A stretch of DNA of 63,901 bases, counting the filler. It is 5 parts of 5 records of this genome, joined end to end, with 100 filler letters (N's around TTAATTAATTAA, not from the genome) between each part and the next. Parts side by side here need not be neighbours in the genome. Positions count along the whole stretch, not along the records: positions 39,495 to 51,002 come from SRR2962707_1114; 4 more parts are not named here. One strand, written 5' to 3'. The position numbers and the translations under genes are program-made. Shown here piece after piece: positions 28,386 to 51,396 of the stretch. The notes beneath the pieces are model-generated. The model was not told the origin of the DNA. It made no database searches and saw only the letters and a list, made by a program, of their open reading frames with translations. Position 1 is the first letter of the stretch, and each line of letters starts with the position of its first letter.

Positions 28386-28536
28386 CCGCTTTTCCCGGTC
28401 CCTCAGCGCGATCAAGGGCTTAGACTTCCCTTTAGAGGGCTTGTGGACTATAACTCCGGCCTCCAAATTAGGAGTATGCGGCAAGCCGGGCAGGAGGCCC
28501 GGGAAGCGGTGCCGCATGTATTTCGGAGAGAAGACG

Positions 28537-29931: not shown

Positions 29932-29954
29932 GCAACAGTCACGGATGAAAATGA

Positions 29955-29982
29955 AAAGGCCCGGTGGAAACACCGGGCCTTT
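29955..29982. terminator. bidirectional intrinsic terminator
   Basis: AAAGGCCCGGTG-GAAA-CACCGGGCCTTT, perfect 12-bp stem between convergent genes. Confidence 0.85.
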
Positions 29983-29985
29983 CTT

Positions 29986-30999
29986 CTAGCTCACCTTGAT
30001 AAGCCTTCGCCCGAGATTCTCGCCCTCGAACAATCCGATAAACGCCGCTGCTGATCCCTCGATCCCGTCCGACACATCTTCCGTATAGACGAGCTTCCCC
30101 TCGTGGATCCACTGGCCCATCTCCGCCTGCGCCTCGCGGAACCGCTTGAAGTAGTCGAACACGACAAGCCCCTCCATCCGCAGCCGATGTGTGATGAAGC
30201 GCGTCACATTGCGAATGCCGACCAGTTCATTGTCCGCGCGGTTGTACTCGCTCACCTGCCCGGAAATCACGATCCGTCCATGTTCCTTTATGTTGAGGAT
30301 CGCGGCGTCGAGCATCTCGCCCCCCACATTGTCGAAATAGATATCGACGCCGTCCGGGCAGTGTTCCTTGATTGCCGCGCGTAAATCAGCGCCGCGATAG
30401 GAGAAGCAGGCATCGAAGCCGAGCCCCGTCACGTAGTCGCATTTCCCTTTCGACCCGGCGATGCCGATAACCTTGCACCCCCTCATCTTCGCGATCTGCC
30501 CCGCCGTCGCGCCCACGGGCCCGGCGGCGGAAGAGATCAGCACGGTATCTCCTTCTTTCGGCTGCCCGAGTTCCAGCAGCCCGAAATAGGAAGTGAGCCC
30601 GGGAATGCCGAGCACCCCGATGGCGGCCGTCGGGCGCAGTGCCCCGTGAAACATCTCGGCGGGAAGTTTCTGCACGCCGCGCCCGTTCGACACCGCATGT
30701 GTCACCCAGCCGAAGCCGCCGGTCACCCGGTCGCCCACCGAAAATTTCTCGTTGTTCGACGCTTCGACGACGCCCACCATCGCGCTGTCGATGGTCTCGC
30801 CCACAGGTAGCGCCGCCGTATAGCTGTCGCCCGAAAGCCGCCCGCGCATGCCGGGGTCGACGGAGTGATGCTCGGTGCGGATCAGGATGTCATGCTCGCC
30901 GATATCCGGCAGCGTCACATCCTCCAGCCGGAAATTCTCACGCTTCGGCTTCCCCTCCGGCCGCGACGCCAGCACCCAGCGTTTCGCCTTTGTCGGCAT
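29986..30999 (-). CDS. NADP-dependent oxidoreductase (CurA/PTGR alkenal-reductase family), paralogue 1
   Basis: Start trimmed to MPTKAKRWVLASRPEG (SD GGAGG); SVDPGMR, LGIPGLTSYFGL, SSAAGPVG, GVDIYFDNVGG. Confidence 0.9.
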   Translation of the reverse strand: MPTKAKRWVLASRPEGKPKRENFRLEDVTLPDIGEHDILIRTEHHSVDPGMRGRLSGDSYTAALPVGETIDSAMVGVVEASNNEKFSVGDRVTGGFGWVTHAVSNGRGVQKLPAEMFHGALRPTAAIGVLGIPGLTSYFGLLELGQPKEGDTVLISSAAGPVGATAGQIAKMRGCKVIGIAGSKGKCDYVTGLGFDACFSYRGADLRAAIKEHCPDGVDIYFDNVGGEMLDAAILNIKEHGRIVISGQVSEYNRADNELVGIRNVTRFITHRLRMEGLVVFDYFKRFREAQAEMGQWIHEGKLVYTEDVSDGIEGSAAAFIGLFEGENLGRRLIKVS

Positions 31000-31023
31000 G
31001 GTTCCTCCTCCCTCACTCTCCTT

Positions 31024-31114
31024 CGTCATTGCGAGAAGCGAAGCGACGAAGCAATCCAGGGGCTGCAACCGATGCTTGCCGCTCTGGATTGCTTCGCTTG
31101 CGCTCGCAATGATG
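31024..31114. repeat. REP/RPE-type palindrome doublet
   Basis: CGTCATTGCGAGAAGCGAAGCGACGAAGCAATCCAG ... CTGGATTGCTTCGCTTGCGCTCGCAATGATG; common alphaproteobacterial intergenic repeat form. Confidence 0.85.
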
Positions 31115-31130
31115 GACGCAGACGCAGGTC

Positions 31131-32156
31131 TTACACCGCTTTGTCCGGCCCGATCTTCACCAGCATCTTGCCGAAATTCGCGCCCTTGAAGAGATTGAGG
31201 AAAGCCTTCGGCGCATTCTCGATGCCGTCTTCCACCGTCTCTTCCCACTTCATCTTGCCGCTTTTGATGAGCGGGCCCATCTCCTCGAAAAACTCGCCGA
31301 GATGCTGGAAGTAGTTGGAAACGATGAAGCCCTGCAGACGCAGGCTCTTGCCGACGATCTGGATCAGGTTCGTCGGGCCGGGCCGCGGCTCGGTGTCGTT
31401 ATACTGCTCGATCATGCCGCACAGCGCCGCCCGTCCGTTCGGCCGCATGTTTTCGATGGCCGCTTCAAGGTGCTTGCCGCCGACATTCTCGAAATAGACG
31501 TCGATCCCCTTTGGGAAGGCGTCCTTCACGGCCTTGGTCAGGTCGCCGCAGGTCTTGTAGTTGATCGCCTTGTCGATGCCGGCTTCCTTCTCAAGCCACT
31601 TGCACTTCTCGTCCGAGCCCGCCGAGCCCACGACATAGCAGCCATGCGCCTTCGCAAGCTGGCACACAACCGAGCCGACCGCGCCCGACGCCGCCGACAC
31701 GAACACCGTGTCGCCGTCCTTCAGGTTCGCCACCTTGAAAAGCCCCGCCCATGCCGTCATGCCCGGCATGCCGAGCACGCCGAGAAACGCCTCGATGGGC
31801 CCGAGCGCCGGATCGACCGGCGTAAAGCCCGCCGCCGGCGCCGTCGCGAATTCGCGCCAGCCCAGCATGTGGTTCACATACGTGCCGACCTTCAGCTTGT
31901 CGCTTTTCGATTCCACCACCTGGCCGATCGCGCCGCCTTCGAGCGGGCTGCCGATCTGGAACGGCGGCACATAGCTTTCGCGGTCCATCATGCGCCCGCG
32001 CATGTAAGGGTCGACCGACATCCATATGTTACGCACCAGCACCTCGCCGTCGCCGGGCTGGCGCGCTTCCGTCGTCGCCACTTCGAAATCGCTGTCCTTC
32101 GGCATGCCGACGGGCCGCGCCTTCAGGCGGATTTCCTTGGAAGTCAGGTTCATCAT
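31131..32156 (-). CDS. NADP-dependent oxidoreductase (CurA/PTGR family), paralogue 2
   Basis: LKARPVG, MSVDPYMRGRM, LGMPGMTAWAGL, VSAASGAVGS, GIDVYFENVGG, GANFGKMLV. Confidence 0.92.
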   Translation of the reverse strand: MMNLTSKEIRLKARPVGMPKDSDFEVATTEARQPGDGEVLVRNIWMSVDPYMRGRMMDRESYVPPFQIGSPLEGGAIGQVVESKSDKLKVGTYVNHMLGWREFATAPAAGFTPVDPALGPIEAFLGVLGMPGMTAWAGLFKVANLKDGDTVFVSAASGAVGSVVCQLAKAHGCYVVGSAGSDEKCKWLEKEAGIDKAINYKTCGDLTKAVKDAFPKGIDVYFENVGGKHLEAAIENMRPNGRAALCGMIEQYNDTEPRPGPTNLIQIVGKSLRLQGFIVSNYFQHLGEFFEEMGPLIKSGKMKWEETVEDGIENAPKAFLNLFKGANFGKMLVKIGPDKAV

Positions 32157-32268
32157 GGGTCTCCTCCACGTCTCTGGGTTTCGTTGAGGAGGAGACTAGC
32201 GGCCTTTCCCGCGCGGCGGAAGGAATCTTGCCCCGCGCGTGAACAACTGCTTGTGAGCTTCTGAACGG

Positions 32269-33630
32269 TCAGGACACCTTCCAGCCGCCGCCCAGCGCCA
32301 CGAACAGGTCGACCGCCGTGCTGTAGCGGTTGAGCCGCGCCTGCGCCGCGCTGTCCCGCGCCGAAAGCCAGCTTCGCTGCGCATCGAGCACGGAGAGAAG
32401 ATCGCTGGCGCCCGCGCGGTAGCGCGCCTGCGACAACTCGTAAGCCTTGCGTGCTTCTTCCGCGGCAATGGCGAGCGAGGCCTCGCGCGCCGCAGTCGCC
32501 TCGACGTTGACGAGCGAGTTCTCCACTTCCGCAAAGGAGTTCAGCACGGTCAGACGGTAGTTCGCGGCAAGTTCCGTCTGCCGGCCTTTCGCCGATTGCA
32601 GGTTCCCTTCGAGCGACCCGCCGGAAAAGATCGGTGCGAGCAGCGACGCGCCGAGCGAACTCGCCGTCTCCGCCGCGCTCGCCGTCGCGAAGCTCCGCGT
32701 CAGCGAGGCGGAAAGATCGAGCGAAGGAAAGAATGCCGCCCGCGCCGCGCCGATATCGGCATTCGCCGCCTTCAGCCGTGCTTCCGAGCTGCGAATGTCC
32801 GGCCGCCGCTCCAGCAGGTCCGAGGGTTGTCCCGCCGCGATGGCGGGCAGGGCAACGGTGTCGAGCGTCGCCGTCTCCACGCCGAAGCGCCCCGGCACGC
32901 GCGCGAGCAGGATCGCCAGCGCATTTTCGTTCGCGGCGAGGTCGGCCCGGAGCGCCGGAATGCCCGCCTCGATGGTCGCCACCGTGTTCCTCTGCTGCGC
33001 GAGGTCGAGCCCCGAAATGCTCCCCGCCTCGTAGCGCGCTTCCACGATATCGAGCGTATCGCGCGCGGCTTTCAGCGAGTCTTCCGCAATCGCGATCCGG
33101 TCCTTCAGCGTCAGGATCGTGAAATAGGTCGTCGCCACTTGGCTTTGCACGATCAGCGCCGCGCCATCCTTGTCGTATTCCGTGGCTTCCAGCGAAAGCC
33201 CCGCCGCGCGCGCCTGGTCGCGGTAGCGGCCCCATATGTCGAGCGCATAGCTCGCCGAGAGGCCAATGTCGGCGCTCTCGCGTGTCGTGCCGCCCCGCGT
33301 CTCGTTCCGCCCGGCGCTGCCGCTCCCGTTCACCTGCGGCAGCAGCGAAGAGCCCGCCGCCCGCGCCGCGCCTCCCGCCTGTTCGACGCGCGCCAGTGCC
33401 TGTTCGATGTCGAGATTGTTCGCAAGCGCCACCTGCATCAGCAGCGACAGTTCCGGGTCGCCAAACGCCGTCCACCACGCGGTGTCCGCGGTGACGTTCA
33501 TCCCGTCCCGCTGCCCCGCGCTCCATGTCTCCTGTGCCCCCGTCTCCGGCCGCTCGTAATCCGGCGCCATGGTGCAGGCGGCGAGCGAGACGGAGAGGAA
33601 AAGGGCGACAAGATTTTTGTTGAAGGTCAT
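32269..33630 (-). CDS. efflux outer-membrane factor lipoprotein (NodT/TolC family)
   Basis: Start trimmed to MTFNKNL; lipobox LAAC-TMAPDYERP, WWTAFGDPEL, LLERRPDIR, IGAARAAFFP, LFVALGGGW. Confidence 0.92.
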   Translation of the reverse strand: MTFNKNLVALFLSVSLAACTMAPDYERPETGAQETWSAGQRDGMNVTADTAWWTAFGDPELSLLMQVALANNLDIEQALARVEQAGGAARAAGSSLLPQVNGSGSAGRNETRGGTTRESADIGLSASYALDIWGRYRDQARAAGLSLEATEYDKDGAALIVQSQVATTYFTILTLKDRIAIAEDSLKAARDTLDIVEARYEAGSISGLDLAQQRNTVATIEAGIPALRADLAANENALAILLARVPGRFGVETATLDTVALPAIAAGQPSDLLERRPDIRSSEARLKAANADIGAARAAFFPSLDLSASLTRSFATASAAETASSLGASLLAPIFSGGSLEGNLQSAKGRQTELAANYRLTVLNSFAEVENSLVNVEATAAREASLAIAAEEARKAYELSQARYRAGASDLLSVLDAQRSWLSARDSAAQARLNRYSTAVDLFVALGGGWKVS

Positions 33631-33640
33631 GTTTCGTACC

Positions 33641-35602
33641 TCACTCCGACGCCAGCGCAACCACAGGATCAAGCTGCGCCGCCTTCCGCGCGGGCAAATA
33701 GCCGAACACCAGCCCGGTGAAAAACGCGCAGGTGAACGCAAGCACCGAGGGCATCGCATTGATCGCAATGTTCATGCCTGCGCTGCTCAGTGCCCCGGCA
33801 AGCGACAGGCCCAGTAGCACGCCGATCAGCCCGCCCACGCCGCAGACCACCAGCGCCTCTGTGTTGAACTGCACCAGAATATTGTTCATCCGCGCGCCCG
33901 TCGCCATGCGGATGCCGATTTCCCGCGTCCGCTCCGTCACGCTCACAAGCATGATGTTCATGACGCCGATGCCGCCGACGAGCAGCGAAATCGCCGCCAC
34001 CGAGCCGAGGAGTATCGTCATCGTGTTCGACATGTCCTCCATCGTCTCCAGCATCGAGGCCGTATTGCGGATTTGGAAGTCCTCCGTCCGGTGCCGCGCC
34101 ATCATCAGCGTATGGATCGCTTCTTCCGTTTCGTCCACGCGCGCCGCATCCGCTACCTTCACCGTCACCGTATTCGCATATTGCTGCCCGAAGAGCCGCA
34201 TGAAGCCGGTCGTGATCGGCACGAAGGCGACATCGTCCTGGTCGCCTCCGAAAGAGGCCGCGCCCTTCGCCTGCATGACGCCCACAACCTCGAAAGGAAT
34301 GTTGCCCGCCAGCACATATTCGCCGACCGGGTTGCCGCCATCGGGAAACAGCGCATCCACCACCGTCTGACCGAGCACGATCACCGGCGCATAGCCGTTG
34401 AGGTCCGCCTCGGTGAAAAACCCGCCTTCGCTGACGGGCCAGTCGCGCACTTCGGTCATCTCCGGCCAGGTGCCGTTGATCTGGGTCCGGTAATCGATAT
34501 TGCCGAAGCGCACGGTGGACGAGCTGCTGCGTTCGGGAATAGCCGCCGTCACATTCGGTATCGTCTCGGCAATCGCCTGGGCATCCGCCGGTATCAGCGT
34601 TGCAATGTCGCCGCTGGAGCGGATGCCCGGCGCGCCGGGGCGCACCAGCAGCAGGTTGGTGCCCATGCTCTGCATGGCGCTCATGATGTTCGCCTTGCTG
34701 CCGTCGCCGATGGCGAGCATGACGACAACGGCGGCAACGCCGATCACGACGCCGAGCAGCGTCAGCGCCGTGCGAAAGATGTTCACGCGCAGCGAACGGA
34801 ACGCCATTTTGATGGCTTCGGCGATTTCCGCCTGTATCACCTGCGCGCCGCTGCCCATCGGCGCGTCTTCGCCCGCGCCGCTGCCTGCGCGCAGCTTCGG
34901 TCCGCTGTCGGAAACAATGTGTCCGTCGCTGATCTGGATCGTGCGGTCCGCATGTTCGGCCACCGCCGGGTCATGCGTGATGAGAATGATCGTGCGGCCT
35001 TCCGCGTTCAGTTCCTTCAGCACGTTCAGCACGTCGGCGCCGCTCTGCGTGTCGAGCGCGCCCGTCGGTTCGTCGGCGAGGATCACGTCGGCGCCGTTCA
35101 TCAGCGCCCGCGCAATGGAAACGCGCTGCTGCTGGCCGCCCGATAATTCGGAGGGGCGGTGCGCTGCGCGGTCGCCCATGCCGAGCCGGTCGAGCAGCGC
35201 CTTCGCGCGCTCGAAGCGTTCGCTCCGCGTCGCACCCGCATAGATCGCAGGCAGCTCGACGTTCTCCGCCGCCGTCATCGTCGCAAGCAGGTTGTAGCGC
35301 TGGAACACGAAGCCGAACGTGTCGCGCCTGAGCGCCGCCAGGTCGTCGGACGTGAGAGCGGCGACATTCGTCCCCGCCACCTCGTAACGGCCGCCGCTCG
35401 GCCGGTCGAGACAGCCGAGAATGTTCATCAGCGTCGATTTGCCGGAGCCCGATTGCCCCATGATGGCAACGAACTCGCCGCGGCGGATCGTCAGCGACAC
35501 GCCGTCCAGCGCCCGCACTTCCGTCTCGCCGGTCTGGTAGACCTTGGTGACATTGCGAAGCTCGATCAGCGGCGCGCCGTTGCGGGGGAGGGGGGAATGC
35601 AT
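33641..35602 (-). CDS. macB: MacB-family ABC exporter (fused ATPase-permease)
   Basis: [79 protein letters not shown]. Confidence 0.92.
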
Positions 35603-35613
35603 CTGCCGCGCTC

Positions 35614-36834
35614 CTACAGGAAGCCCATTCGGCGCCGGCTGCTGCCGCCGCCCGCGCCATCGGATGTGACGACGCCCGTCACCACGGTCTCGCCCGCCTC
35701 AAGCCCGCTCTTGATCTCCACATTGATGCGGTTCGCGAGCCCGGTTTCGACTTCGCGCGGGCGCGGGCCGTTGCCGGTCATCACCTGAACCGTCTGCGTG
35801 CCGCCCTGCGTTTCCCGCACCGCGCCCACAGGCACGGTGAGAACGTCGCGCGCCTCGCCGAGCAGGAAAAACACCTGGGCCGTCATATCCTTCATCAGCA
35901 GCCGCTCGGGATTCTCGATATCGACTAGCACCGTGTAGAGCACCACCTCGTTGACGATTTCCGGCGTCGGCAATATCTGGCGCACCGTCGAAGTCCAGCG
36001 CCGCTCCGGGCTTCCAAGCGTCGTGAAATAGACCGGCATGCCCGCCTTGAGCTTGCCCACATCCGCTTCCGCCACCTGCGCCTCGACAGTCATGGTGTCG
36101 AGATTGGCGATCTGCAGCACGACAGGCGCGGTCTGGTTCGCGTTCAGCGTCTGTCCCTGCAGCGCCGTTTGCGACGTCACTGTGCCGCTGATCGGCGCAT
36201 AGATTTTCGTGTAGCCGAGATTGGCTTCGCCCGCTTCCACGGTCGATTGCTGCTGTTCGATCTGCGCCTTCAGCGAGCCGATCTGCGCACCGATGGTCTG
36301 CACCGCCGTCTCGCTCGTGTCGAGGTCGTCCCGGCTCACCGCGTCGATCTTCGCAAGGCCGATATTGCGGTCATATTGCCGCTGCGCCAGCACGAGCTCG
36401 GCCTGCGCGCCCGCAAGCTGAGAGGTGAGGTCGGCGAGCCGCGCCCGCGCGCCCGCCACTTCCGCCGCATAGACCTTGGCGTCGATGGTGGCGAGCAGGT
36501 CGCCCTTCGTCACCTGTCCGCCGACATCCACATGCACCGTTTCAAGCTGGCCGGAAACCTGCGCGCCCACATCCACATATTCTTTCGGCTGCAGCGAGCC
36601 GAGCGCCGTCACTGTCTGCTCGATGTTGCCGCGCGTCACCGTCTGCGTGCGATAGGTGACGTCCTCGCCGCCGAAGAGCCAGCCGGAGATGAGCCACAGC
36701 GCAACAAGCGCCAAAAGCGCAATCGCGCCCCAGCGCGCAGGGCCGGGGAGCCCGCTCCATGTCGCGCGTAGCCGCTGAGGCAGCCTCATCGGGCCGCCCG
36801 CCTGCCGTTCCGTTGTGTCGTATTCATATCCCAT
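35614..36834 (-). CDS. macA: MacA-family periplasmic adaptor subunit
   Basis: N-terminal TM helix; [42 protein letters not shown]. Confidence 0.9.
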
Positions 36835-36889
36835 GGCCGCATTTGTCCGTCCGAAGTGTCCCCACTCTATATAACGGACAAACCGCCCC

Positions 36890-36915
36890 GTTCCGTCGCC
36901 CGAAAGCGACGGAAC
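36890..36915. terminator. 10-bp perfect hairpin between oxidoreductase 3 and macA
   Basis: GTTCCGTCGC-CCGAAA-GCGACGGAAC; no clear U-tract. Confidence 0.5.
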
Positions 36916-36939
36916 TGCGATAGATGCAAAATGAGGGCG

Positions 36940-37938
36940 TCAGGAAACCCGGATCATGCGCTTGCCGACATTGTCGCCCGCAAGAAGCCCGATCAGCGCC
37001 TGCGGCGTGTTCTCGAGCCCCTCCATGATGTCTTCCATGACCTTGATCTTGCCGGAATTGACCCAGCCCTGGAGCTCGGCGAGCGCGGCGTCGTGCTTGT
37101 CCATGTAGTCCATCACGATGAAGCCCTGCATGATGAGCCGCTTCACGACCACGAGCCCCGGAATGCCGCGCGGCCCATGCGCGGGCGCCGCGCCGTCATA
37201 TTGCGACACCGCCCCGCAGCAGGCGATCCGCCCGTGATTGTTCATGCCGAACAGAACGGCTTCCAGAATGTCGCCGCCGACATTGTCGAAATAGACGTCG
37301 ATGCCCTTCGGTGCGGCCTTCCGCAGCGCCTTGCCCACGGGTTCCGCCTTGTAGTCGATGGCCGCATCGAAGCCGAGTTCGTCGGTCAGCAGCTTGCACT
37401 TCTTCTCGCCGCCCGCGATCCCGATGACCGTGCAGCCCTTGATCTTCGCAATCTGCCCGACAATCGTGCCGACCGAGCCCGCCGCCGCGGACACGACCAC
37501 TGTGTCGCCCGCTTTCGGCTTGCCGACTTCCAGCAGCCCGAAATAGGCGGTCAGCCCGGCAATGCCGTACACGCTGAGAAGGTGCGACAGGGGCTCCATC
37601 TTCGGCAGCTTCTGCGCCGTCTTGGCGGCCACGGCGGCATATTCCTGCCAGCCCGTATCCGAGAACACGAGGTCGCCCTTGGCAAAGCCCGGCGCCTTCG
37701 CCTCCAGAACCTCCGAAATCGAGCCGCCCGCCATCACCGTCCCTGCTTCCACGGCGGAGCGATAGGTCGCGCCCTGCATCCAAGCCCGGTTCGCCGCGTC
37801 GAGCGAGATCAGCTTCGTCTTCAGCAGCAATTCTCCGTCCTTCGGCGCGGGCATGGCGCCCTCGGCCAGCTTGAAATGGCTGGGTGCGAGCTTTCCCTGC
37901 GGCGTTTCGGTCAGCAGAATCTGGCGGTTGGCGGTCAT
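36940..37938 (-). CDS. NADP-dependent oxidoreductase (CurA/PTGR family), paralogue 3
   Basis: Start trimmed to MTANRQILL (SD GAGGAGG); ISLDAANRAWM, GIAGLTAYFGL, VSAAAGSVG, GIDVYFDNVGG. Confidence 0.9.
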   Translation of the reverse strand: MTANRQILLTETPQGKLAPSHFKLAEGAMPAPKDGELLLKTKLISLDAANRAWMQGATYRSAVEAGTVMAGGSISEVLEAKAPGFAKGDLVFSDTGWQEYAAVAAKTAQKLPKMEPLSHLLSVYGIAGLTAYFGLLEVGKPKAGDTVVVSAAAGSVGTIVGQIAKIKGCTVIGIAGGEKKCKLLTDELGFDAAIDYKAEPVGKALRKAAPKGIDVYFDNVGGDILEAVLFGMNNHGRIACCGAVSQYDGAAPAHGPRGIPGLVVVKRLIMQGFIVMDYMDKHDAALAELQGWVNSGKIKVMEDIMEGLENTPQALIGLLAGDNVGKRMIRVS

Positions 37939-38125
37939 GGTGTCCTCCTCGGGGTCCGTTTTTTCGTTGGACGGGAGCCTAGCCCCGGCGGCGCTCCGGC
38001 GCACCCGCGAATGCCGCTCCGGCCCGTTCATCCCTGAACTATTGTGAGTGCGCGTCTCAACGGCTAAAACCGCGAGGCCGAATCCCCATATCCTTGGGGC
38101 GTAACCGCCCGGATTTGCTTGTGAA

Positions 38126-39394
38126 ATGACCGATAAGCTCCGCATAGCCTTCGCCCAGTTGAACCCCGTCGTGGGCGACATCGCCGGCAATTTCGACAAG
38201 GCCGTCGAGGCCCGCCGCGCGGCGGAAGTCGAAGGCGCGGAACTCGTCGTCTTCACCGAACTCTTCCTGACGGGCTATCCACCTGAAGATCTCGTGTTGA
38301 AGCGCGCCTTTCAGGATGCCGCCCGCGCCGCTGCCATCGAGCTTGCCCGCCAGACCGGCGATGGCGGTCCCGGCGTCCTCATCGGCTGTCCCTGGCTCGC
38401 CGACGACGGCAAGCTCTTCAACGCCGTCCTCTATCTCGACAAGGGCGAGGTGCGCGGCTACCGCGCCAAGGTCCACCTGCCGAACTATTCCGTCTTCGAT
38501 GAGCCGCGCGTCTTCGACGAGGGCCCCATGCCCGGCCCCTTCAACATTCGCGGCGTCCGCGTCGGCGTCCCCATCTGCGAGGACATCTGGTTCGCGGACG
38601 TGGTCGAGTGTCTGGAGGAATCCGGCGCCGAGATGATCCTCGTCCCGAACGGTTCCCCCTACGACTTCAACAAGTATGACGCGCGCATGCAGCTCGCCGT
38701 CGGCCGCATCAAGGAAAGCGGCCTGCCGCTCGCTTACGTGAACCAGCTCGGCGGCCAGGACGAACTCGTCTTCGACGGCGCTTCCTTCGTGCTGAACGCC
38801 GATCTCTCGCTCCCGATCCAGATGCCGGCATGGGAAGAAAAAATCGTCTGCACGGACTGGACGCGCGAGGCGAAGGGCTGGGTCTGCGCGCCGGGCGAAG
38901 TCGCGAAGATCGAGGAAAGCGACGAAGCGCTTTATCTCGCCGTCGTTCAGGGCCTGCGTGATTACGTCCGCAAGAACCGCTTCCCCGGCGTCGTGCTCGG
39001 CCTCTCCGGCGGCATCGACAGCGCGCTCGTCGCCGCCATCGCCGTCGACGCGCTCGGCCCCGACAAGGTCCATTGCGTCATGCTTCCCTACCGCTACACC
39101 TCGTCGGAAAGCCTCGAGGACGCGGAGGCCTGCGCCAGGCTCCTCGGCGTCCGCTACGACACGGTCCCCATCGAAGCCCCCGTTTCCGGCTTCCTCGAAA
39201 CGCTCGGACCGATGTTCGAGGGCACGCAATCCGACACGACCGAGGAAAACCTCCAGTCCCGTTCGCGCGGCGTCATCCTCATGGCGATCTCCAACAAGTT
39301 CGGTTCCATGCTGCTGACGACCGGCAACAAGTCCGAAGTCTCAGCGGGTTACGCCACCATTTATGGCGACATGAATGGCGGCTTCAATCCGATC
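38126..39394 (+). CDS. nadE: glutamine-dependent NAD+ synthetase (3' truncated)
   Basis: Nitrilase domain (AQLNPVVGD, ELFLTGYPPEDL, KVHLPNY, ICEDIW) plus synthetase domain (GLSGGIDSA, ENLQSR, TTGNKSE, YATIYGDM). Confidence 0.95.
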
Positions 39395-39494
39395 NNNNNN
39401 NNNNNNNNNNNNNNNNNNNNNNNNNNNNNNNNNNNNNNTTAATTAATTAANNNNNNNNNNNNNNNNNNNNNNNNNNNNNNNNNNNNNNNNNNNN
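39395..39494. other. artificial contig spacer
   Basis: 44 N + TTAATTAATTAA + 44 N. Confidence 0.99.
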
Positions 39495-39590
39495 AGTCAG
39501 TGAGTCAGTGAGTGCGCTGGTTTTAGTTGAGTTCCTTCTTTTTGGTCTTCTTGTGGTTGTTGTTGTGTTGCTGCTGTTGTTGTTGTTACC
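39495..39590. repeat. low-complexity microsatellite-like sequence at the edge of the eukaryotic contig
   Basis: AGTCAGTGAGTCAGTGAGT followed by imperfect (TTG/CTG)n runs. Confidence 0.6.
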
Positions 39591-39614
39591 GTCGTTACTG
39601 CTTGCTGCAGCAAT

Positions 39615-41129
39615 ATGAGCAGCGAGTTCGGGGAGCTTCCCCCTATCCCGCCTGAGTTGAAGAAGTTGCGGGCCTTCTTCGTGCTGGCAAGGCGCGTGTC
39701 GAAGGGTGGGAAGCCAGAGGGGAAGATATGTAGCTGGCTGCTTCGTCAACATGCTGTAGTCACTGGTGCGCGCATGCCCGTGGCTCAGGGCGGGGAAAGC
39801 CGCGCTTTTATCATGGCAGCGTTGGACCAGCTTGAGCGTGAGAAGCCCACGCTTCCGCCGCACACAGGCGAAGAAGAGCTGGAGATCTTGCAGGTGTACG
39901 CCTTCAAGAACTTCAAGCTTGCAGAGGCACCGGATCTGCAAGGCAATGCCAACAAAGCGACGGCTATAATCTACCTGAATGCCGCCAAGATGTTTGACTG
40001 CCTGGTTGCCACAGCTGGGAAAGATTCCCAGCATATTCCTGTGGATCAATTCATCATGCTGAAGAATGCGTGCATGACACGATCAGTTGAGATTGTACGG
40101 GCACTGAAAGAGGGCCGCCGACCAGCGCCTCCCGAGTACGCCAATACCTCCGCAGGTGCTGCAGGCGCACTGGCCGGAGGTGGAGGCAGCTCGGCCTCTG
40201 CTGGAGCGCCCGCCACAACCAATGACTACGAGCCTCAGTTTGGCGGAGGTGGCGGGGCTAGTGGCAATGGCGGTGTGCGCATGCCAGCACCGTACCCCGC
40301 ACCGGCACCTACACCTGCACCAGTATTCTCGCCTGCTCCAGCGCCGTCGTTTGGGTCCACCGGGGGCTATGTTCCGACATTTGGAGGGCCTCCTGTTGCT
40401 CCACCGCCTGTCCCTGCTCCAGCCCCTCAAGTTGATGATGATGACGATTTTTTCGCCAGCATGATTCCAGCGGCACCAACGGGCATGCCTGGCTCCAGCA
40501 AACCGACGTTTTCTGCCGCACCGTCCCCGGCACCTGCCGCAAAGCCCACATTTGGTGCAGCTCCTGGGCCGGCCAATGGGCCGCCACCGCAGCACCAGAA
40601 TCCGCACCCAAGCACTGATCCATTGGCGCCGGTCATGGCGTCAGTGACAAAGGCTAAGGCTTCCGATGCCGCTCGCAACTACGGTGACGCACTTGAAGAG
40701 TACAAGGCGGCTCTCCAGCAAATTTTGTTTGCACACAAAAATGAACCAGGCCTGAGTGCCGATAGCAAAGCAAACTTGATGCAGGAAGCAAGACGTGGCA
40801 TGACGCGCGCGGAGCAGATCAAAGTTGAACTAACAACTCTACCGCCAGCCTTGCCGACGTCCACTCTTGACCCCTTGCTGAGCGTCCAGCTCCCAGACTC
40901 TAGCACAGTACGGCTGGTTTCTGGTGCACTGAACCAAGATCTCAAGGGAAACCTCGGAAATGCCCTCGAGGTATACAAAAGCGCTTTGCAATCGCTGATG
41001 GGTGCGATGAAGGCGACAGCACACGATCCGCGAACAAAGGGTATTGTGGTGTCGCAGTTAAAGCTGTACATGAGCAGGGCAGAGCAGCTCAAAGCTTGGC
41101 TGCGTGAACGAGGTCGTAAAACGGACTGA
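39615..41129 (+). CDS. Vta1/LIP5-like ESCRT protein with two C-terminal MIT domains (eukaryotic)
   Basis: N-terminus LPPIPPELKKL..FIMAALDQLEREK..YAFKNFKLAE..ALKEGRRP parallels the Vta1 N-domain; Pro/Gly-rich linker; two repeats of the MIT pattern A..D...NY..AL..YK.AL...(Y/G)M.RAEQ(I/L)K; no intron needed. Confidence 0.78.
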   Translation: MSSEFGELPPIPPELKKLRAFFVLARRVSKGGKPEGKICSWLLRQHAVVTGARMPVAQGGESRAFIMAALDQLEREKPTLPPHTGEEELEILQVYAFKNFKLAEAPDLQGNANKATAIIYLNAAKMFDCLVATAGKDSQHIPVDQFIMLKNACMTRSVEIVRALKEGRRPAPPEYANTSAGAAGALAGGGGSSASAGAPATTNDYEPQFGGGGGASGNGGVRMPAPYPAPAPTPAPVFSPAPAPSFGSTGGYVPTFGGPPVAPPPVPAPAPQVDDDDDFFASMIPAAPTGMPGSSKPTFSAAPSPAPAAKPTFGAAPGPANGPPPQHQNPHPSTDPLAPVMASVTKAKASDAARNYGDALEEYKAALQQILFAHKNEPGLSADSKANLMQEARRGMTRAEQIKVELTTLPPALPTSTLDPLLSVQLPDSSTVRLVSGALNQDLKGNLGNALEVYKSALQSLMGAMKATAHDPRTKGIVVSQLKLYMSRAEQLKAWLRERGRKTD

Positions 41130-41345
41130 CAGGCTGTTAATTTAATCGTTATTCTGCGCATTCAACCTTTTGGACCTGTTGTGTCGTGTGCACAGACAGC
41201 ACTTGCGAAGGCTGCTTCTCAAGTTACAAGTTATGAACTTGTCAAAATGGCCTGAGCTGTATTAGGACAACTATGAACTACAGTTGGCGATTGACAAGTG
41301 CATTCACCTTCTTGGTGTCTGGTGGGCACCGAATGGCTGTCGGCG

Positions 41346-44300
41346 CTACCTCGTTTGCCCACTCCGATGCGGAGGTGTGATGCTATCAGCAGGCTCTGTG
41401 CTATCGGAATCAACGGTTGTGAAGCCACTGCTCCCAGACTCGTCAGCGTCATCCATCGGTCTGTGCATGGGCGAGCTGCTGCATCTGCTGCTGATCGATT
41501 GAGAGCTGGCATTCGCAGCACTGCTCATCTCAACACTATCTGCATCCATTTGGCGTTCAAAATTCGATGCTTGCCGATCCGAGGACTCTATGGCCCTGCC
41601 CCTTCCAGCAGAGACTTCAGCGCTCACCTCACGAACCTGGTTGTCGCTCGCCTCAATCAGCGCTGCCGCTTCGGCCTCGCAAATTCCAGTTTTCAAAATA
41701 GCCTCCATGTCCTCTAAAAGGTCATCTATGCTTGGCTCGGTGTCGTGCGGATCATTGTCGTTCAAAGTGGCGATAGGCCCATGGAACGGTTTCGTTTTCT
41801 CCTGCACTTTGGCTTTGCTTGGCGCACAGCGGTCCTGACGAAGCACAGGTGTTCCATTTGCAGCTCGCAAATCATGCACGCGAGCCTCAATCTCAGCAGG
41901 CGGTAAGCCAAATAAGCGAGCGCAATGCACCACTTGCTGCGACACGTCTTCGGGACGAGATCCATCCTGGCTACAAGCAAGATATCTGCAGCGTGCCAAC
42001 AATTCTGCATCGTCAACAGATTGGGTGTGTTGGTCTCCCATGGTTGAACTTTTTGCTTGACTGCGTGAATCGTGCAGCTTGCCACTTGCAGCAGCATTAC
42101 TCTCTTTGTCACGTAATTCCTTGCAAGTTGCACTGTCATCGTGAATCGGCTCTCGGGTATACTCTTCAGGATCATATTTTTCGTGCTTGGCATCTCGAGC
42201 CACAACGCCAACAACCCTTTCCAGACCTGAAGCAATGTGCTGTCCAAGCGGTGTGTGAAACCCGAGTCTTGACGACATGCCTGCAGGTTTGCTGAGCCAA
42301 GCCCGAAACCGTTCTGATGTGGACGCCGAGGTCGTGGTCGCTGCAGATTGAGGTTGATGGTTATCGGGCATTTCTGAATTGGCTGGAGCCGTTTTCGTAC
42401 TACTCGTACGCTCATTTCCTACATAATCAGGGGGAGCCCACAGCAAACTGGTGTTAGATCGTATAAAACATCCAAAACAATATCTCAACGCGCAGCACAC
42501 AAACCTAGATTCAATGGCATGAACGGAACGCAGTGGCCATATTGGTCGGAAATCAAACGACGCGGAAGGTCTAAGTGCACCCATTCGTCATTCGGACTCA
42601 CAAGAGAGCCCTCTGGCCAAACAGCGTCGTACCTGTCGACCCCGGCAGTGCATGGTGAAATAGCAGGCGGTTTTCCAAGGTTTTGCAAACTATGTCCAAC
42701 AACGCACCGAATATAATGTGGGAGCGTAGCAGCAGCCTTTGCTGAGATTGAATTTCTGGCTTGAGTGTCAGCGTCGTCGTGCCCACGCCCTTGGGCCAAA
42801 ATGCTTAATTTCCGGCTAACTTTTCGGACAGTAGCCTTATACGCGTGCATGCTCCCGGACGCAGATTGCAGCTGAAATATAAAAGAGAGACCCGGCTCTA
42901 CTGTTCCCTTGGTTTCATACTGACGTTCCTTGTCCCCCGAAGATTCGCCGTCAAATATTGAGTTTTGCAGTCCGCTGCGGCTATCGTGTATGACAGGACT
43001 CAGTCCGAGAAAACGACGCAAAGCAGACAAAAGTGCAAGACCGTAGCAAATCCGACGCTGACACCGGTGGGTCGAATCATCGTTGTCAGGAGGATGGCCA
43101 TTGTGTAGACTTGTCATGACTGAAATAGAGGCATCTGTTCCCAAGGCCTGCTCGTGTATTTCTTGACGCAAGAGTGTTGCAAGTTCACTCAAATGCGCGG
43201 CAGTGTTGAGCAAAACTGCTGAAGCTGAAATTAGCAAAGGAACTGGAGCAACAAGTAAAAGAGGCTGAACATCTTCAGCTGCGCTGCCAGCAGCGTATTC
43301 TCGAGCACCATCGTAATTGTGCGCCGTGCAATCTTTGGAAGGAGTAGAACAATCACCACCCTTGGACACGTTGTGCTTGTCGACACTCTGTTTTTTACTG
43401 AAGTCGCTGGTCGCAACAGACAGCTGATGATGTGAAATCACCGATGCGCCTAAAATCCAATTGAACATCGGGATATCGAAGAGTCCCAGGCGGCGTAACA
43501 GCGTGATGGACAAAAATTTGTCCGGGGCACGTCCGCTTGTCTTTCCCACGTACCTTGGAAGGTGCGGCAATGGATCTTGAACCATGCGCATGATTTCTTG
43601 GACCCTGAGCAAACGAATTGTTCAACACACACGCATTTAAACTACTATATTCAGCAAAATGGGTTGCGCCTCGTGAAGCTACAACACATTCGAACCCAAT
43701 CGTTGCTAGAAAATATGCAGAGCCGGACAACGTACTCGAATGCGCTGGATGCGGCGTCGTCCTCGGTCAATATGGAAAAATTTCTTTCGCACAACCTTTG
43801 CAAGATTACGACGATTCGTCGAGCAGCAAAGTCCACGAGCTGATGTCGCAAAATAACAACCTTCTCGTGCACATGGAATACTCTTTTTGAAAAAGCAACA
43901 TCAGGCGATGCCTCGTGTATCGTTGCCGCACGCGTTTGATCCGAAAGTCGAGGTACACTTTGCAGCAGGATGTCTTCAGCTTGACTCATGTGCTGCAGAA
44001 TGTTGGTCCATCTCCTTGCTGGCGCTGGGAGAGCTGCTTGATCAATAACAGCATCATCTTCGCCCTCCTGCGTGTCCCAATCAGGTGCGGATATCCGAAT
44101 GTCTTGCAAGAGCGAGTGCAGTGATTTAAAAGCACGGAGATCGTCACATCGCCCCAACGCATGCGGAAGGACCACTTCACGCTCCACATCGGACCACGTG
44201 AGACGGGCACATTCGACCAGACCACGGATAAATCGAACATCAGCTTCAACCTCCATTCCTGTCCCCCAGATTCGCGCACCGCGCAGTTCGTAGAGCCGGT

Positions 44301-47300
44301 GGCTCAAAAGTGCTGACAAAAACCGCATCGCGTGTCTGCAATGGCCATCGTTGCTGCTCTTACTTGCGCCCAGGAGCGCAATTTGAGCTCCACTGCGCGC
44401 AATGCACCCGGCTTGTAGGGGCGAACTACATCTTGGAAACCCAATGAATATTGGTGCACGCGAGGGAACTATATGTTCAGTAAAGAGTTCGTTGGCACGA
44501 AGCCAAACATCCGCGAAAGGCAGCTTCTTTGCAAAATTGTCCACGTGCGGCGATGATGTTGCAGGGTCAACATTTGCACCAAAATTTAAAGAGCCAACCA
44601 TGAGCGCCGTCCGGAGAAGTTGCGCATGGCGCTGAATGCAGATGAGAAACGCATCTGTGCACATGTGGCTGGGTGGAGCTTTAGACGACAACTGTCCCCC
44701 GATCACCGATGAAAGTGCCCCGCTTTGCATACAAATAAAATCAAATGTTTTCACCCATGCGATGATCCCATCGTCTGCAAATTCTTCTCCCGCAACTTGA
44801 GCTATGTGAGCACAGCGTCTATCAGACAGCCGAACGTTCAAAGGCCAGCCAGTCTCACGAACGGCACGTTCGAGGATACGCAATGTCCTCGCGCATTCGT
44901 TAATCAGCGGCAAGTAGGTGATCAAGATGTCGTGGTACGGACGCCCAGAGGTCGCGACAGACATTTCAGCACGGTATGCATTGTGAAAGGGAAACCCATT
45001 CAAGCATGCCACCAGCAGCGGCCGCAGCTGCACTTCCCACATGCAATACGCGCATATCACTTGCATCGACAGTTCAACACTCGAAATACTGCTGGCGTCC
45101 AAAGAAGGGTTGGCTGTAGGTCGAGCGTCTCCAAACGATTGAAACAAGCTTAGGTGTGAGTTGAATTGCGCAATACCAATCTGCACCCGCGATAGCGCTT
45201 GAATGTCAAATGGCAAGCATTCGCGACGGCAAGGGCTCCACAAATTGCGGCGGTTGGATTCGTCAATCGCTGCTTTCACTCGGTGAAAAAGGAAATTTAG
45301 GCGGTGAGCATTAAGACTGACTGACCACATGTCCAGTTGCAGAAAATTCTGATCGTTGTGCCCAGAACTGGCGCCGGGTGTAGCGTCAGCCCTGCATTCG
45401 ACCTGAGACGCGGCCAGCCACACCATTCGTTTGCACAAGGCCAGTCGGCGAATGTTGACCTGCGCTGATGTCCCTGTCTGAGTTGAAGGGTCTAGTGTCC
45501 CAGCGCTGGATGGGGTCGAAGCCTGCGACGACGAAACGGTCGTCGACTCAGACACAGCAGAATCAGGTGGCACCAAAGAGCTTGGCAACGTCAACGGCAG
45601 CACTCGCACTAGTTCTGGGAGCACGTCAGTCCAAAAGTCACAATCATTGCATGTGCGGTTGTGGGTTTTCGTTTTGTCACTTGCGGCAAAATATCTCGTC
45701 ACGTCGTCTCGGCATGCACTGGCACGTGCGCTGCTGTCAGAATCGTCGACGTCGGCAAGTTGGAGAGCGCCAAGAGCGGCCGTAAAAGTTCCAAGCACGT
45801 CCAATTGTGCACCAATGGATCTACCGTCATCACAACTACGAATTCTCCCATGCTGAACCCCAATGGGTTTGACTGGCAGACGCACTATGGGAATTCGATC
45901 AATTTGCACATCGCGGGTGGCAAGAGCAAGAATGTTAACTACCCGAATTTGGTGTGTTGTGTGGTGCCAGCGGTCTGCCTCGTAAACAAGCCAACTACGG
46001 GTACCGGCGGCTTTGGGCGCTTCGCAACTTGCAGGTTCTTCCCTGCCATGCACGCTTTTTGACTGCCGCGGCATTGTATCGGCACCAGCCCACAAACGTA
46101 AATCCGCTGACAACGCAGCGGCGAGTGCCATTGCTCGATTAAGCGCACACAGTTCGCTTGGCACTGCTTCTGAAATGAACTTTGGGGCAGTGCCCCACAA
46201 AGCCGTCAAAAACGATTGACGAAAGTGCAAAGCAAACGATGCAGACCAATTGTCCACCTGTTGATGATTCTCGGTTCCACAACTTTGCGGCAGCGCAGCA
46301 CAACCATGGTTCAAATTTTCTGGAGCATTCGGGGCGACAACGTCGCCATTTCGCGAGCCCACAGCGGTATGCTTTGCACTCAGGTTAATATTGGAGGCCA
46401 CGGCGCCATGCTCGCCAAGCAAAAGTTCCCGGAGGAAGCATAGCGTGGCATGAATGATGGGCTTCGGAGGTTCATCATCGTATTGAAGACTAGCTTCGCT
46501 ATCATCGCGTTGATGGTCGTTAAAAACCCATGGCTTGTTGGAGTTTTGCATCAAATCCCAAACAAACTTGCTTGCAACACCAGCTGCTTGACGGGGACGA
46601 AGCGCTGTCCGGAACCCCTGCAAAAACTGTTTCAGGCCATTGCGTGCAGCTGCTGCTAAACGCTCTCTGTGCCCAATTTGGACGCGCGGCGGGCAGAACG
46701 CGTCAAGTGGATTCCCACTGGAGCGTACGTGGGTGATGTGCAGGCAGAGCAAAAACGCAGGGGACAAAATGCGCGAGGCTTCCTCGAAAAGCATGCCCAT
46801 TGTCCAACAGGCCATAGGTCCATCCAGCACCCGACAACGTGTTAACGCAGAATCCGTTGCCAGCTGCTTGACTTGGCAAAGTAAGCGAGTCGCAAGTGCG
46901 CAGTACCTGCAAATTCAAAACGCAGATGGACAGTTTGTTGTCGTAAAGCAATCCGACATTCTCAGTTCCAAATTGCACATTGCATCAAGTGTACGTACTG
47001 AGCCTCCACTGTTCCTGTTGGAAAATCAGCCAAATGCCGACGACGCTGCTGCCATTCGGGCGACATATGTCGCCATTGTTGTTCGGTGGGAGGAACCCAT
47101 CGAGTGATACTGGATAAGACAGGCTTCCATAGCCGCCATTCAACTTGCACAGCCGATGGTTTTCCCACTCTTTGTGCTACACTTGCTTGCCTAGCCTCCG
47201 CTCTCAAAAAGCAGTGAAAACAAATGCCGAAACAAACTTCGTTCCCATGGCTGTCAATATTTGCGGCATTTTCGACGGTCACAACGGAGGACTTGCAGTC

Positions 47301-50300
47301 AACACACGTATTGGCCAAAGAGAGCAGAATACCTGCCAAAAAATGACCTGAGCACAGAGCGTCGGCTGTTGCCACGAAAGCACAGTCGCCATCTAACTGC
47401 CACGAGCTTCTTAACTGCAAGGGCACTGGTGCTAGTTTCACAACGCTTGATATGGTCGAGTAGAAGTTCATTGCATCAATCCAAAACATATCCACGGCTT
47501 CGCCCACATCGCCACGAGCATTGCTGAGTTGGGGCAATGAGGACGAGGTCAAAACACAGCGAGTTCCCACCACTCGCTTCAGCAAACGTCGCATGAGCCG
47601 AAAGAACAAGCGACCATCTACCAACGCAGGAGCACGACCTGGCAGCTCGTCGTTGTGACTGAAGCTAGCACTTTGCAACGCCAAATCGCGATAGAGTGCA
47701 CGCACCAACCGCTCGGTGGCGTTGGCCACAGGTGCGCCTAGGTGGGCTCTTATGTCGGGGCGGTTTGAAAGAATCATATCCAACACATCTACGCGCGAAA
47801 TAAAAATCACACAGACACCAAATTTGTAAATCATAGAGCTGCAAAGATCGCTGTTAATAGTGCCGTTTGAACTTGAGAAGGCGGCGCTGCTCCTTACCTG
47901 ACTTTTCCATATCCCGCTCTAAGTTCGACACACCCACACCACGAAGCAGAGTCTTGAGCACAGCCTAGAAATTCAAATATGGCTCACTTACTGATACAGC
48001 CGTTGCAAGTTCGGCACGCTGAAGCAGGCAAATATTGGTAATGTTGCAAAACTCACGACGCTCATCGCGGCAGAATTTGAGATCGAACCAGACCGTGCGG
48101 TACCCAGAGCGTTTGTGCGCACGAGCTCAAAGATTGCTCGATCACAAGGAGTGGTGGAAGCTTCAATAATGTGCATCAAGTGATCCACTGGCGCCTTTAA
48201 ATCTGTGTCTGCCGTTGACGCACCAGAATCTCCTGGCACTTGCTTAATGAGAACCTGCGGCAGAGACCCCTTCATGACACAGTCCGCAATCATGAAAACA
48301 CTTTGTGCTGGTCCAAAGAAAGCGGTGATGGTCTCTTCACAATTTTGCCATTCAAAAAAGTGCCTGTGGCCGCAAGCGGCGCCGCCTGCCGGCAATGCAG
48401 TGCCATTCACCCCATCGTTCATTGCACGTCCCTCGGATCGTTCCACCAAAAGTTGCAGCTGCTGCTTCCAATTTCCCCGCATTTCGTCCACATGGGCGAA
48501 GATGCAACTTGACATGTAGTCTCGAAAGGCTTGGTTGGACGTTGGTGATGAACGGCGCTGATCACTCAGGGGCTCCATTCCCTGCAACACGCGTAAGATT
48601 GATTAAAACACCAGCTAGAACACAACAACACAGAAAGCACGAGAAGTTTGCTTGCAGCACACCTCGCAATTTGGGGACGATGATGGTGAAGGTGTTCGTG
48701 GTTTTTGAGTACCCTTCCTTACGAGACTTTGTTGCCAACGACGTCGCTGATCGACGAGCCAACAGTCAAACAAGAGGCCCATCGTTCGTAATTCAAATTG
48801 GCGACTTGGTTGAAAGGAAGTGCGCGTCTGTCTGCCGGTTTCACCCCGTACTTCATCCTCCTGGTCATCAATGCTGGTCTCCATTGTTGCTGACTGTTCG
48901 GTGTGGGCTTTCTCTTGCCTGTGAGTTCTTAAAACTACAAGGCAAGAACGTTCAGCAGGCAACCATGGCACTGTAGGGCGTAGAAAAAAAGAACGCAGCT
49001 CGATCCCTGCCGTGTTAAGTGCAATGGCGCAGACTTGCGTAGCAAGGACCATGTCCCATACTTGGACGGTGGACCTTTGAGGAGCATAAATGATCAAAAA
49101 GGTTCCCCGTCTGCGCATGGATTCACTTTTGGAGTCTGAAACACTATGGTCGTGAAAGGCGACAAAGTTTGTCCACTCACATGTCGCATCCCGATAACCT
49201 TTGAAATACTTCACTACCTGACCCTGTGGCAGCAGGTAAACTCGAATACGACCGTTGCTGTCTGAGACAGCAGCCATTGCTGCAGGAGATGCTGCCAGCG
49301 GCTCGGTGGAAGGGCACAGACGGGGTTTTGCACCTCGCCAATTGTGTACCCAGCACCATGAAACAGAGCGCACTGCACAGTTTCCCGGAGCATCGTCATA
49401 GAATGTTGCACGGGCGAGGTCTTCATTGAAGTACGCCGATCCGCCCGCTTTTTGCACGGGAGGCGCAAGTGAGGGTGCTAAACGGGTGATTGTTGCTTTA
49501 AATATGGGAGAGCCATTCGTCGATCCACTTTTATTTTCGGGCCACATACGCTCCGCTGCAAGGTGCAAGAGCAAGTCTGATGCCGTGATGTAGCCTGGCA
49601 AACGGCTCACTATCAGTTGACAGCGTACTCGCATCATAAAAACGCCTCGTGTAGTCACGTACGTGTCGACCATAAAACAACGGGAAGAACTGCGTGCGCT
49701 AGCAATGGCTGCAATCTTTGGCATTTCTGTATCATCTCCACAACACGGGCCGCAATGTTTTCGTTGCCAAACCGCATCACTTACTTCCTGCAGCAGGGAA
49801 GCAGCAGGCGCCTTTGAAAAAGTAGCGAGCGATGGCACTGACTCCGTTAAATACGAGGCAGGAACAACAGTGGCAACAATTTGAGTGCCCAGAACGGATT
49901 TTCGAGGATCATGTGATTCCTCAGCAGTACACAGTGGTCGAGTACTCCAGCTGCAGTGAAACAGTGACAGTGGAGCGGAGAGAGCTGTGGTATCGTCAAC
50001 CGCATTGCCAACAGTTGACACTTGTCGGAAGCGACGTGCGTATGCTGTGCCACTGCCACTGGCATCTTCTCCTCCAACACCATTGTCACCTGGGAAGTCG
50101 AAATGATTGTCGCGATGAGTGTGACACCGATTGGCGGCTGCCCACAAGTGCCCTTGAATCCAATACTCGGTCACCACCCACTGCGGAAAGGCAAACACCA
50201 CTCCGTCCTCGAAAACAACTGCAACATCGGGCATATAGCCACTTCCAACCTTGGCGCCTTTTTCATTCGCATGACCACTGCCCATCACATCAGCATTCGT

Positions 50301-51002: not shown

Positions 51003-51102
51003 NNNNNNNNNNNNNNNNNNNNNNNNNNNNNNNNNNNNNNNNNNNNTTAATTAATTAANNNNNNNNNNNNNNNNNNNNNNNNNNNNNNNNNNNNNNNNNN
51101 NN
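51003..51102. other. artificial contig spacer
   Basis: 44 N + TTAATTAATTAA + 44 N. Confidence 0.99.
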
Positions 51103-51396
51103 GTCCTTGATACGCAGCATCTCGGGGCCGTAGGCATCGTAACGGCCAGATTCTTTCCACAAATCGGCGGACTGCATCGTCGGCATCAGCATTGGGATAT
51201 GTCCCGCGCGCTGCTGTTCTTCGTGCACAATCTTTTCAATGTTGCGCAGCACCTTGTAGCCCAGCGGTAGCCAAGAATAGATTCCGGCTGCGGCCTGTTT
51301 GATCATACCGGCGCGCAGCATGTAGCGGTGGCTCACGATCTGCGCCTCGGCAGGCGTCTCGCGCAGCACGGGCATGAAATATCGGCTCAGGCGCAT
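51103..51396 (-). CDS. proS: proline--tRNA ligase (3' truncated)
   Basis: [63 protein letters not shown]; typical alphaproteobacterial N-terminus. Confidence 0.95.

Follow-up and report, generated by a model that had tools for sequence, protein, structure and literature searches.

The gene at positions 39615..41129 (plus strand) of the window, the 63,901-nucleotide stretch of DNA that was analysed, encodes a Vta1-like protein with C-terminal MIT domains. The protein consists of a Vta1/LIP5-type N-terminal domain, a long linker and two MIT domains, and no VSL domain is found. This order of parts, first proposed in a first-pass annotation of the DNA, was confirmed as a whole by Pfam, AlphaFold2 and VIA. 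In canonical Vta1 the N-terminal MIT pair binds the tails of ESCRT-III. To our knowledge, Vps4 has a universal helper in Vta1/LIP5, and in current models it is the VSL dimer of this helper that clamps neighbouring Vps4 subunits. The protein may be a lineage-restricted variant of Vta1 that binds ESCRT-III tails through four MIT modules and lacks the canonical contact between the VSL and the Vps4 beta domain; this explanation is given about an even chance of being correct.

The open reading frame (ORF) is complete and intron-free and encodes 504 amino acids (aa). It runs from an ATG to a TGA stop at 41127-41129, the frame is open for all 504 codons, and in-frame stops lie upstream of the ATG. 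The related protein P0001 aligns with it from end to end (aa 4-504 of the query against 3-539, E 2e-149), and a 763.5-kb contig is recorded as carrying an identical protein of 504 aa. The gene is genuine and is that of a microbial eukaryote.

The N-terminal Vta1/LIP5-type tandem-MIT domain covers aa 3-170 (39621..40124, plus strand) and is identified by PF04652, VIA and Foldseek. A Pfam search of the query listed six families at E<=10. Among them, Vta1 (PF04652) covers aa 38-165 with an E of 4.7e-7 and a score of 30.3 bits, the cut-off being 26.8. Most relatives score 80-140 bits against the same family, so the N-domain of the query is unusually divergent. In a comparison with PDB sequences, aa 6-133 match the N-domain of human VTA1 (E 4.7e-3). 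An AlphaFold2 model of the full-length query, built on an alignment of 29 sequences, is helical over aa 12-165 with a predicted local distance difference test score (pLDDT) of >90. VIA aligns aa 3-170 with LIP5's N-terminal domain (NTD; 4txq_A) at Z 19.5 (root-mean-square deviation, rmsd, 2.2 A over 157 aligned residues; 24% identity) and with the yeast Vta1 NTD (2rkk_A) at Z 16.1. Foldseek agrees, with TM-scores of 0.83-0.84 normalised to the target. The Pfam score and the match to LIP5 bear out the earlier description of the N-domain as recognisable but divergent.

The C-terminal part of the protein carries two MIT domains. The first (aa 335-409; 40617..40841, plus strand) is a Vps4-type three-helix bundle, and the second occupies aa 430-500 (40902..41114, plus strand); both were identified with the Pfam MIT family, phmmer and VIA. 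Pfam MIT (PF04212) matches two stretches of the query with an E of 3.9e-21 and 75.3 bits, the best stretch of the second domain being aa 432-493. In phmmer searches against PDB sequences the first domain matches the VPS4A MIT (1yxr_A, E 3.2e-4), and aa 430-502 match the VPS4B MIT (2jqh_A, E 1.9e-5). The AlphaFold2 model has pLDDT 93-98 over aa 335-500, with helices at 338-352, 356-376 and 382-407 in the first domain and at 430-444, 447-467 and 472-499 in the second. By VIA, aa 332-413 align with the VPS4B MIT (4u7y_A) at Z 12.7, and aa 426-504 align with the MITs of MITD1 (2ymb_C, Z 11.5) and katanin p60 (Z 11.2) and with the second MIT of ULK3 (Z 11.4). The comparison with generic MITs in hhalign gives probabilities of 99.8% and 99.7%. 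Aligned with one another, the two domains share 36% identity (24/66, E 2e-9), and both agree with the MIT consensus over its full length. The placement of two further MITs at about aa 337-405 and 430-500, made from the sequence before these searches, fits the helix limits, the Pfam match and VIA Z values of about 11-13.

MIT domains take up the MIT-interacting motif (MIM) of ESCRT-III tails in the groove of helices 2 and 3 or in that of helices 1 and 3. Where the query MITs align with residue 13 (Val to Val) and residue 64 (Leu to Met) of VPS4A, both have kept hydrophobic residues, and these two positions are presumed here to have roles in MIM binding. For yeast, the available text of PMC3987140 gives the substitutions I18D (MIM2) and L64D (MIM1). 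Judged from these residues and the consensus, both C-terminal MITs look competent.

The two domains are joined by a conserved connector (aa 410-429; 40842..40901, plus strand) of the form LPPxLP..T[LI][DN]PL, with a short helix at 415-422, which is also present in P0001, P0003 and P0006. Its pLDDT is 94-96 in the full-length model and 91-95 in a model of the fragment. The pair was modelled as one rigid unit in the fragment model, with a predicted TM-score (pTM) of 0.78 and pLDDT 90.4. In a search of 48,161 chains none covers both MITs at low rmsd, and the predicted orientation is unlike that of solved tandem MITs.

The VSL region is defined in the available part of PMC2063703 as a two-helix hairpin in about the last 30-40 residues. 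The first-pass annotation had seen no VSL-like motif in the query, and had raised the case that the C-terminus might nevertheless score as Vta1_C. Pfam does not list Vta1_C (PF18097) for the query at E<=10. A VSL profile built here from eight Pfam-confirmed VSLs recovers the VSLs of canonical Vta1, with full-sequence E values down to 3.6e-31, and 71 long segments were extracted with it. At E<=10 the query, P0001, P0003 and P0008 are absent from its matches, and what it gives for P0006 and P0024 is noise (E 2 and E 3.2, respectively). A broader VSL profile run over the six frames of 39495-51002, the part of the window that holds the gene, reaches 0.6 bits at best. The absence of a VSL motif is therefore upheld by Pfam, by the VSL profile and by the six-frame scan.

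The relatives with a single C-terminal MIT give the same result. The best VSL score in all frames of seven metagenome loci of these relatives is -1.5 bits, and five complete loci have the N-domain and the MIT in one frame. P0001, P0003 and P0006 end 0-10 residues past helix 3 of their second MIT, and an ORF convergent to the gene begins 217 bp past its stop. Since the orthologues end after the second MIT, the convergent ORF lies so near and no VSL is present in any frame, a missed VSL exon appears very unlikely.

The architecture is not confined to the query. In an exhaustive HMMER search 159 proteins reached E<=1e-3, and 45 of these were scanned for domains. The Vta1 N-domain is combined with MIT in five of the 45, with two MITs in P0001, P0003 and P0006 and with one in P0008 and P0024. 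A profile search found both Pfam families in 9 of 46 matches and added seven new one-MIT clusters (P0170-P0176), which are without a VSL. All 35 other new matches are VSL-bearing (E<=1.7e-6) and include named Vta1 proteins of oomycetes, diatoms, plants and fungi. In total, the architecture is found in 13 clusters at 90% identity from ENA, NCBI, EukProt, JGI and Tara. Four of them have two MITs (that of the query itself, P0001, P0003 and P0006) and nine have one (P0008, P0024 and P0170-P0176). A query-based search of genome contigs and metagenome contigs found no relative.

The first-pass annotation had not recognised the architecture. It does recur in public data, where some of the clusters have been automatically named VTA1/K12199. 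No paper describing it was found, and a full-text literature search, covering open papers without their supplements, gave no Vta1 N-domain joined to C-terminal MITs. The architecture is rare and apparently undescribed; its parts and its pathway are well known.

The position of these proteins in the family was examined with two trees. In a tree of N-domains (109 rows, quick search) all four proteins with two MITs fall into a single group (SH-aLRT 85) within the Vta1 family. A second group (SH-aLRT 97) is made up of P0008, P0024 and the fragment P0156, which has the same N-domain as P0024. Both MIT-bearing groups lie within an unresolved Vta1 backbone. The other tree, of single MIT domains (54 rows, 71 columns), has too little resolution to match the MIT of the sister group to the first or the second MIT of the query. 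In this tree the four second MITs fall in a set of six rows with two other MITs (SH-aLRT 84), and the first MIT of P0006 is placed with single MITs (SH-aLRT 92).

The N-domain and the MIT pair are connected by a disordered linker rich in Gly, Ala and Pro (aa 171-334, about 165 aa; 40125..40616, plus strand), delimited by pLDDT and by alignment. The pLDDT of aa 179-314 is mostly <55, and this predicted disorder bears out the Pro-rich linker noted earlier. Apart from one motif, the linker is unalignable between orthologues. The motif is the acidic-hydrophobic segment DDDDDFFASMIPAAPTGMP (aa 274-292; 40434..40490, plus strand), with the core [IL]PxAPxxxP, which is MIM2-like and common to other Vta1 linkers. 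Copies of [ILVM]PxAP number one in the query, one in P0001, four in P0003, eight in P0006, one in P0008 and none in P0024. The counts in P0003 and P0006 were reached by 0 of 1000 shuffles.

The motif also occurs in Vta1 proteins that have a VSL. It is present in 20 of 79 VSL-bearing linkers, with 22 occurrences against 3.9 expected (summed shuffle expectation). In a second set of 41 proteins it is found in 14 of 34 VSL-bearing and 0 of 7 one-MIT proteins, with 16 occurrences against 2.59 expected. Across many lineages of VSL-bearing Vta1 the motif is several-fold enriched, is often followed by T/S-G and has acidic or hydrophobic residues before it; examples are the linkers of P0181, P0201, P0206, P0040 and P0113. 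A near-copy of the query motif is YDIPAAPTGN in P0181. A literature search for the [IL]PxAP motif in Vta1 linkers found no description of it. These counts suggest that [ILVM]PxAP can be read as an old linker motif of Vta1. Its retention in the query, together with its enrichment in VSL-bearing linkers, argues for descent from a Vta1 and not for a chance fusion.

One candidate partner of the motif is the groove between helices 1 and 3 (H1/H3) of an MIT. A UEV domain is the other candidate, from a likeness of [IL]PxAP to P(T/S)AP, which is assumed here. The MIM2 consensus is phi-P-x-phi-P-x-x-P-phi-P (Kojima 2016, as quoted in the available part of PMC5840170). The segment IPAAPTGMP of the query fits the phi-P-x-A-P half, and its distal Pro comes one residue late, a spacing also found in P0001 and in three of the four copies of P0003. 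The MIM2-like acidic segment reported by the first-pass annotation is real, but its core is not peculiar to the query. The further proposal of autoinhibition, or of Vps4 binding, by way of the protein's own MIM finds no support in that form, as the motif core is common in VSL-bearing Vta1 and AlphaFold2 leaves the segment undocked. Autoinhibition by the linker motif is unsupported because the model docks the motif on no domain; aa 269-302 have pLDDT <50, and this low value is not counter-evidence either.

The canonical VSL is described, in the available parts of PMC2063703, PMC5413351 and PMC5520056, as an antiparallel helix pair that dimerises as a four-helix bundle, binds the beta domain of Vps4 and bridges adjacent subunits. 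The query shares with Vta1/LIP5/SBP1 the N-terminal tandem-MIT domain, the flexible linker and the [IL]PxAP linker motif. It differs in having no VSL hairpin, the module for dimerisation and for the Vps4 beta domain, and has two complete Vps4-type MITs instead. It would belong to a small branch of Vta1/LIP5 in which the VSL tail has been replaced by full MITs, two in the query and one in the sister group. Each chain would then carry four MIT-type modules, a LIP5-like N-terminal pair and a Vps4-like C-terminal pair in a fixed arrangement, which would allow multivalent binding of ESCRT-III C-terminal tails (MIMs). With four such modules on one chain, the protein would be expected to gather, like Vta1, on ESCRT-III polymers that have already assembled. 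Without a VSL, it is proposed, there would be no four-helix-bundle dimer and no clamping of neighbouring Vps4 beta domains. Since the VSL is missing, it is a fair inference that the protein does not activate Vps4 by the standard route. If it affects Vps4 at all, it would do so indirectly, through co-recruitment, bridging or competition for the same MIM tails, or through a new contact. A four-MIT tail binder that acts indirectly is the most economical mechanism, and it is about evenly balanced whether it is the right one.

Other MIT proteins offer partial comparisons. Both C-terminal MITs of the query are closest in sequence to the MITs of VPS4A/B and superimpose on the MIT (PF04212) of Vps4/SKD1 with an rmsd of 1.3-2.4 A. 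However, the query has no AAA ATPase cassette, and its MITs are C-terminal and in tandem. Like the tandem-MIT binders calpain-7, ULK3 and the LIP5 NTD, the joined pair of the query could engage two MIM elements. In the case of CAPN7 and IST1, two MIT modules engage two MIM elements according to the available part of PMC9477494. The orientation predicted for the pair, however, is not that of any of these binders; with CAPN7 (8uc6_B), 141 residues align at an rmsd of 17.4 A to the model. The nearest non-Vta1 relatives of the query MITs are small three-MIT proteins. Small proteins of 223-394 aa that contain three MIT repeats and hardly anything more were seen in P0023, P0044, P0047, P0052, P0076, P0105, P0111, P0121, P0122 and P0149. 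Unlike the query, P0023, P0044, P0052, P0105, P0121 and P0122 are without the Vta1 N-domain and the long linker.

Two results weigh against a Vta1 variant that has lost its VSL function. The PF04652 score of the query is only 3.5 bits over the Pfam cut-off, and the VSL resembles helices 1-2 of MIT weakly and in register, so that a C-terminal MIT may still do a VSL-like job.

The protein could also be an extra paralogue that exists beside a canonical VSL-bearing Vta1, an MIT-rich ESCRT-III adaptor with a separate role, comparable to MITD1, calpain-7 or ULK3 of animals. This is possible but rather less than probable. The unresolved backbone of the N-domain tree ties the MIT-bearing groups to no organismal lineage, and, among named proteins, those whose N-domains are nearest to the one-MIT group (from oomycetes and a diatom) are all VSL-bearing. 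The divergence of the query N-domain is also as expected under relaxed or changed constraint. However, retention of the Vta1-type linker motif argues against such a paralogue.

A second alternative is that a C-terminal MIT is homologous and equivalent to the VSL, with the tip of the hairpin of helix 1 and helix 2 contacting Vps4 and giving near-standard activation. MAFFT lays the VSL hairpin on helices 1-2 of the first MIT, and positions 2-34 of the Pfam MIT profile match the VSL region of P0011 (E 0.0044). An hhalign comparison of the 71 VSL segments with 37 generic MITs gives a score of 16.9 (P 0.0014) in a register that places VSL 5-38 on MIT 2-35; this score was reached by 0 of 200 column shuffles (mean 8.4, max 16.6). 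A generic MIT hidden Markov model (HMM) also prefers real VSLs, scoring >0 bits for 67 of the 71 (mean 3.65) as against 132 of 355 shuffled segments (-0.44) and 47 of 71 reversed ones (1.18). One register is common to 62 of the 67 VSL segments above 0 bits, which does not amount to 62 independent events because the segments are related to each other. On the other hand, hhalign gives the match a probability of only 17% with generic MITs and of 4% with the first MIT of this family, and the second MIT gives no alignment. In the hhalign register the conserved Asp of MIT falls opposite the conserved Leu of the VSL, and helical hairpins readily give weak matches. The third helix of an MIT would also sit on the dimerising face of the VSL, which forms a four-helix bundle in the available text of PMC5520056. 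The similarity is a weak lead only, drawn from sequence comparison, and equivalence of the two domains is unlikely.

A related idea is that the VSL is a cut-down MIT, reduced to helices 1-2, which lost helix 3 and gained dimerisation, and that the MIT-ended proteins have kept the full domain or reverted to it. Coupling to Vps4 and ESCRT-III would then be purely between MIT and MIM, possibly with [IL]PxAP as a MIM2-type ligand of the Vps4 MIT. The likelihood of this scheme is considered low. If true, it would represent a second, undescribed wiring of a Vps4 cofactor to Vps4 and ESCRT-III.

The gene could in principle be an artefact, through chimeric assembly, wrong gene calling or a model cut short before a VSL exon downstream. 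Such a suspicion might come from its start only 120 bp inside its 11.5-kb chunk and from the presence of both bacterial and eukaryotic DNA in the window, but an artefact is highly improbable and already close to refuted given the open frame with stops before the ATG, the identical protein on the 763.5-kb contig, the end-to-end alignment with P0001, the 13 clusters of the same architecture from five sources, the five metagenome loci with the N-domain and the MIT in one frame, and no VSL in any frame.

The window is composed of five separate chunks (1-13823, 13924-27027, 27128-39394, 39495-51002 and 51103-63901). They are separated by four linkers with the pattern N44-TTAATTAATTAA-N44 at 13824-13923, 27028-27127, 39395-39494 and 51003-51102. 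The ORFs sampled in chunks 1, 2, 3 and 5 are typically bacterial, and chunk 4 (39495-51002) alone looks eukaryotic. The bacterial ORFs encode an FGGY kinase, the TRAP transporter proteins DctP/DctM, prolyl-tRNA synthetase, catalase, a MacB/HlyD pump, a NadE-like protein, polyphosphate kinase (Ppk), Ppx, flagellin and methylmalonyl-CoA mutase. A mixed assembly is seen here, with bacterial and eukaryotic chunks within one window. Since chunk 4 is eukaryotic, the other chunks are bacterial and the exact protein is present on a 763.5-kb contig, the gene is from a microbial eukaryote that was assembled together with bacteria. Rfam and tRNA scans of the whole window gave no matches, and atlas searches yielded generic eukaryotic clusters only.

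The minus strand of 41346-50669, convergent to the gene, contains six consecutive long ORFs of 412, 368, 1054, 290, 196 and 684 aa, with gaps of -100 to 154 bp. Only the last of the six (684 aa) has a Pfam match, to the eukaryotic family RAB3GAP2_N (E 2.7e-21). The run may represent one or two very large genes that are split by short introns or frame changes. X1 is the only sequencing run listed for this DNA, and no RNA run is listed. Of its sequences, three contig records were placed on the window; nothing in them covers the gene, and only pieces of 19 bases touch 39567-39587, which bears on neither expression nor splicing. Record 3 of this run is a 10.9-kb contig that equals 43735-46902 without differences, and both of its ends diverge beyond that region. 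The divergence could be an effect of the assembly graph or a structural difference between assemblies.

Other gene contexts and domain arrangements were seen among the relatives. On a 5-kb marine metagenome contig a one-MIT Vta1-like gene (L001:280-1353) is intron-free and is followed by a purple-acid-phosphatase-like gene and then by an ion-transport-domain gene. Some canonical Vta1 proteins (P0018 and P0015) have tandem VSL hairpins, which in P0018 lie at aa 291-332 (E 5e-12) and 339-382 (E 3e-19). In P0007 (490 aa) the Vta1 N-domain is present twice, complete and in tandem, and P0073 (516 aa) combines a Vta1 N-domain with a VSL-like stretch and a RING finger.

The exchange of the VSL for MITs offers a natural way to tell the Vta1 functions that depend on the VSL from those for which the binding of ESCRT-III tails is enough. 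The MIT-ended branch also raises a testable idea on the origin of the VSL. The [IL]PxAP motif is a candidate binding site in a linker that is usually seen as a passive tether. The variant suggests that there may be another way of tying a Vta1-type cofactor to the membrane-cutting machinery.

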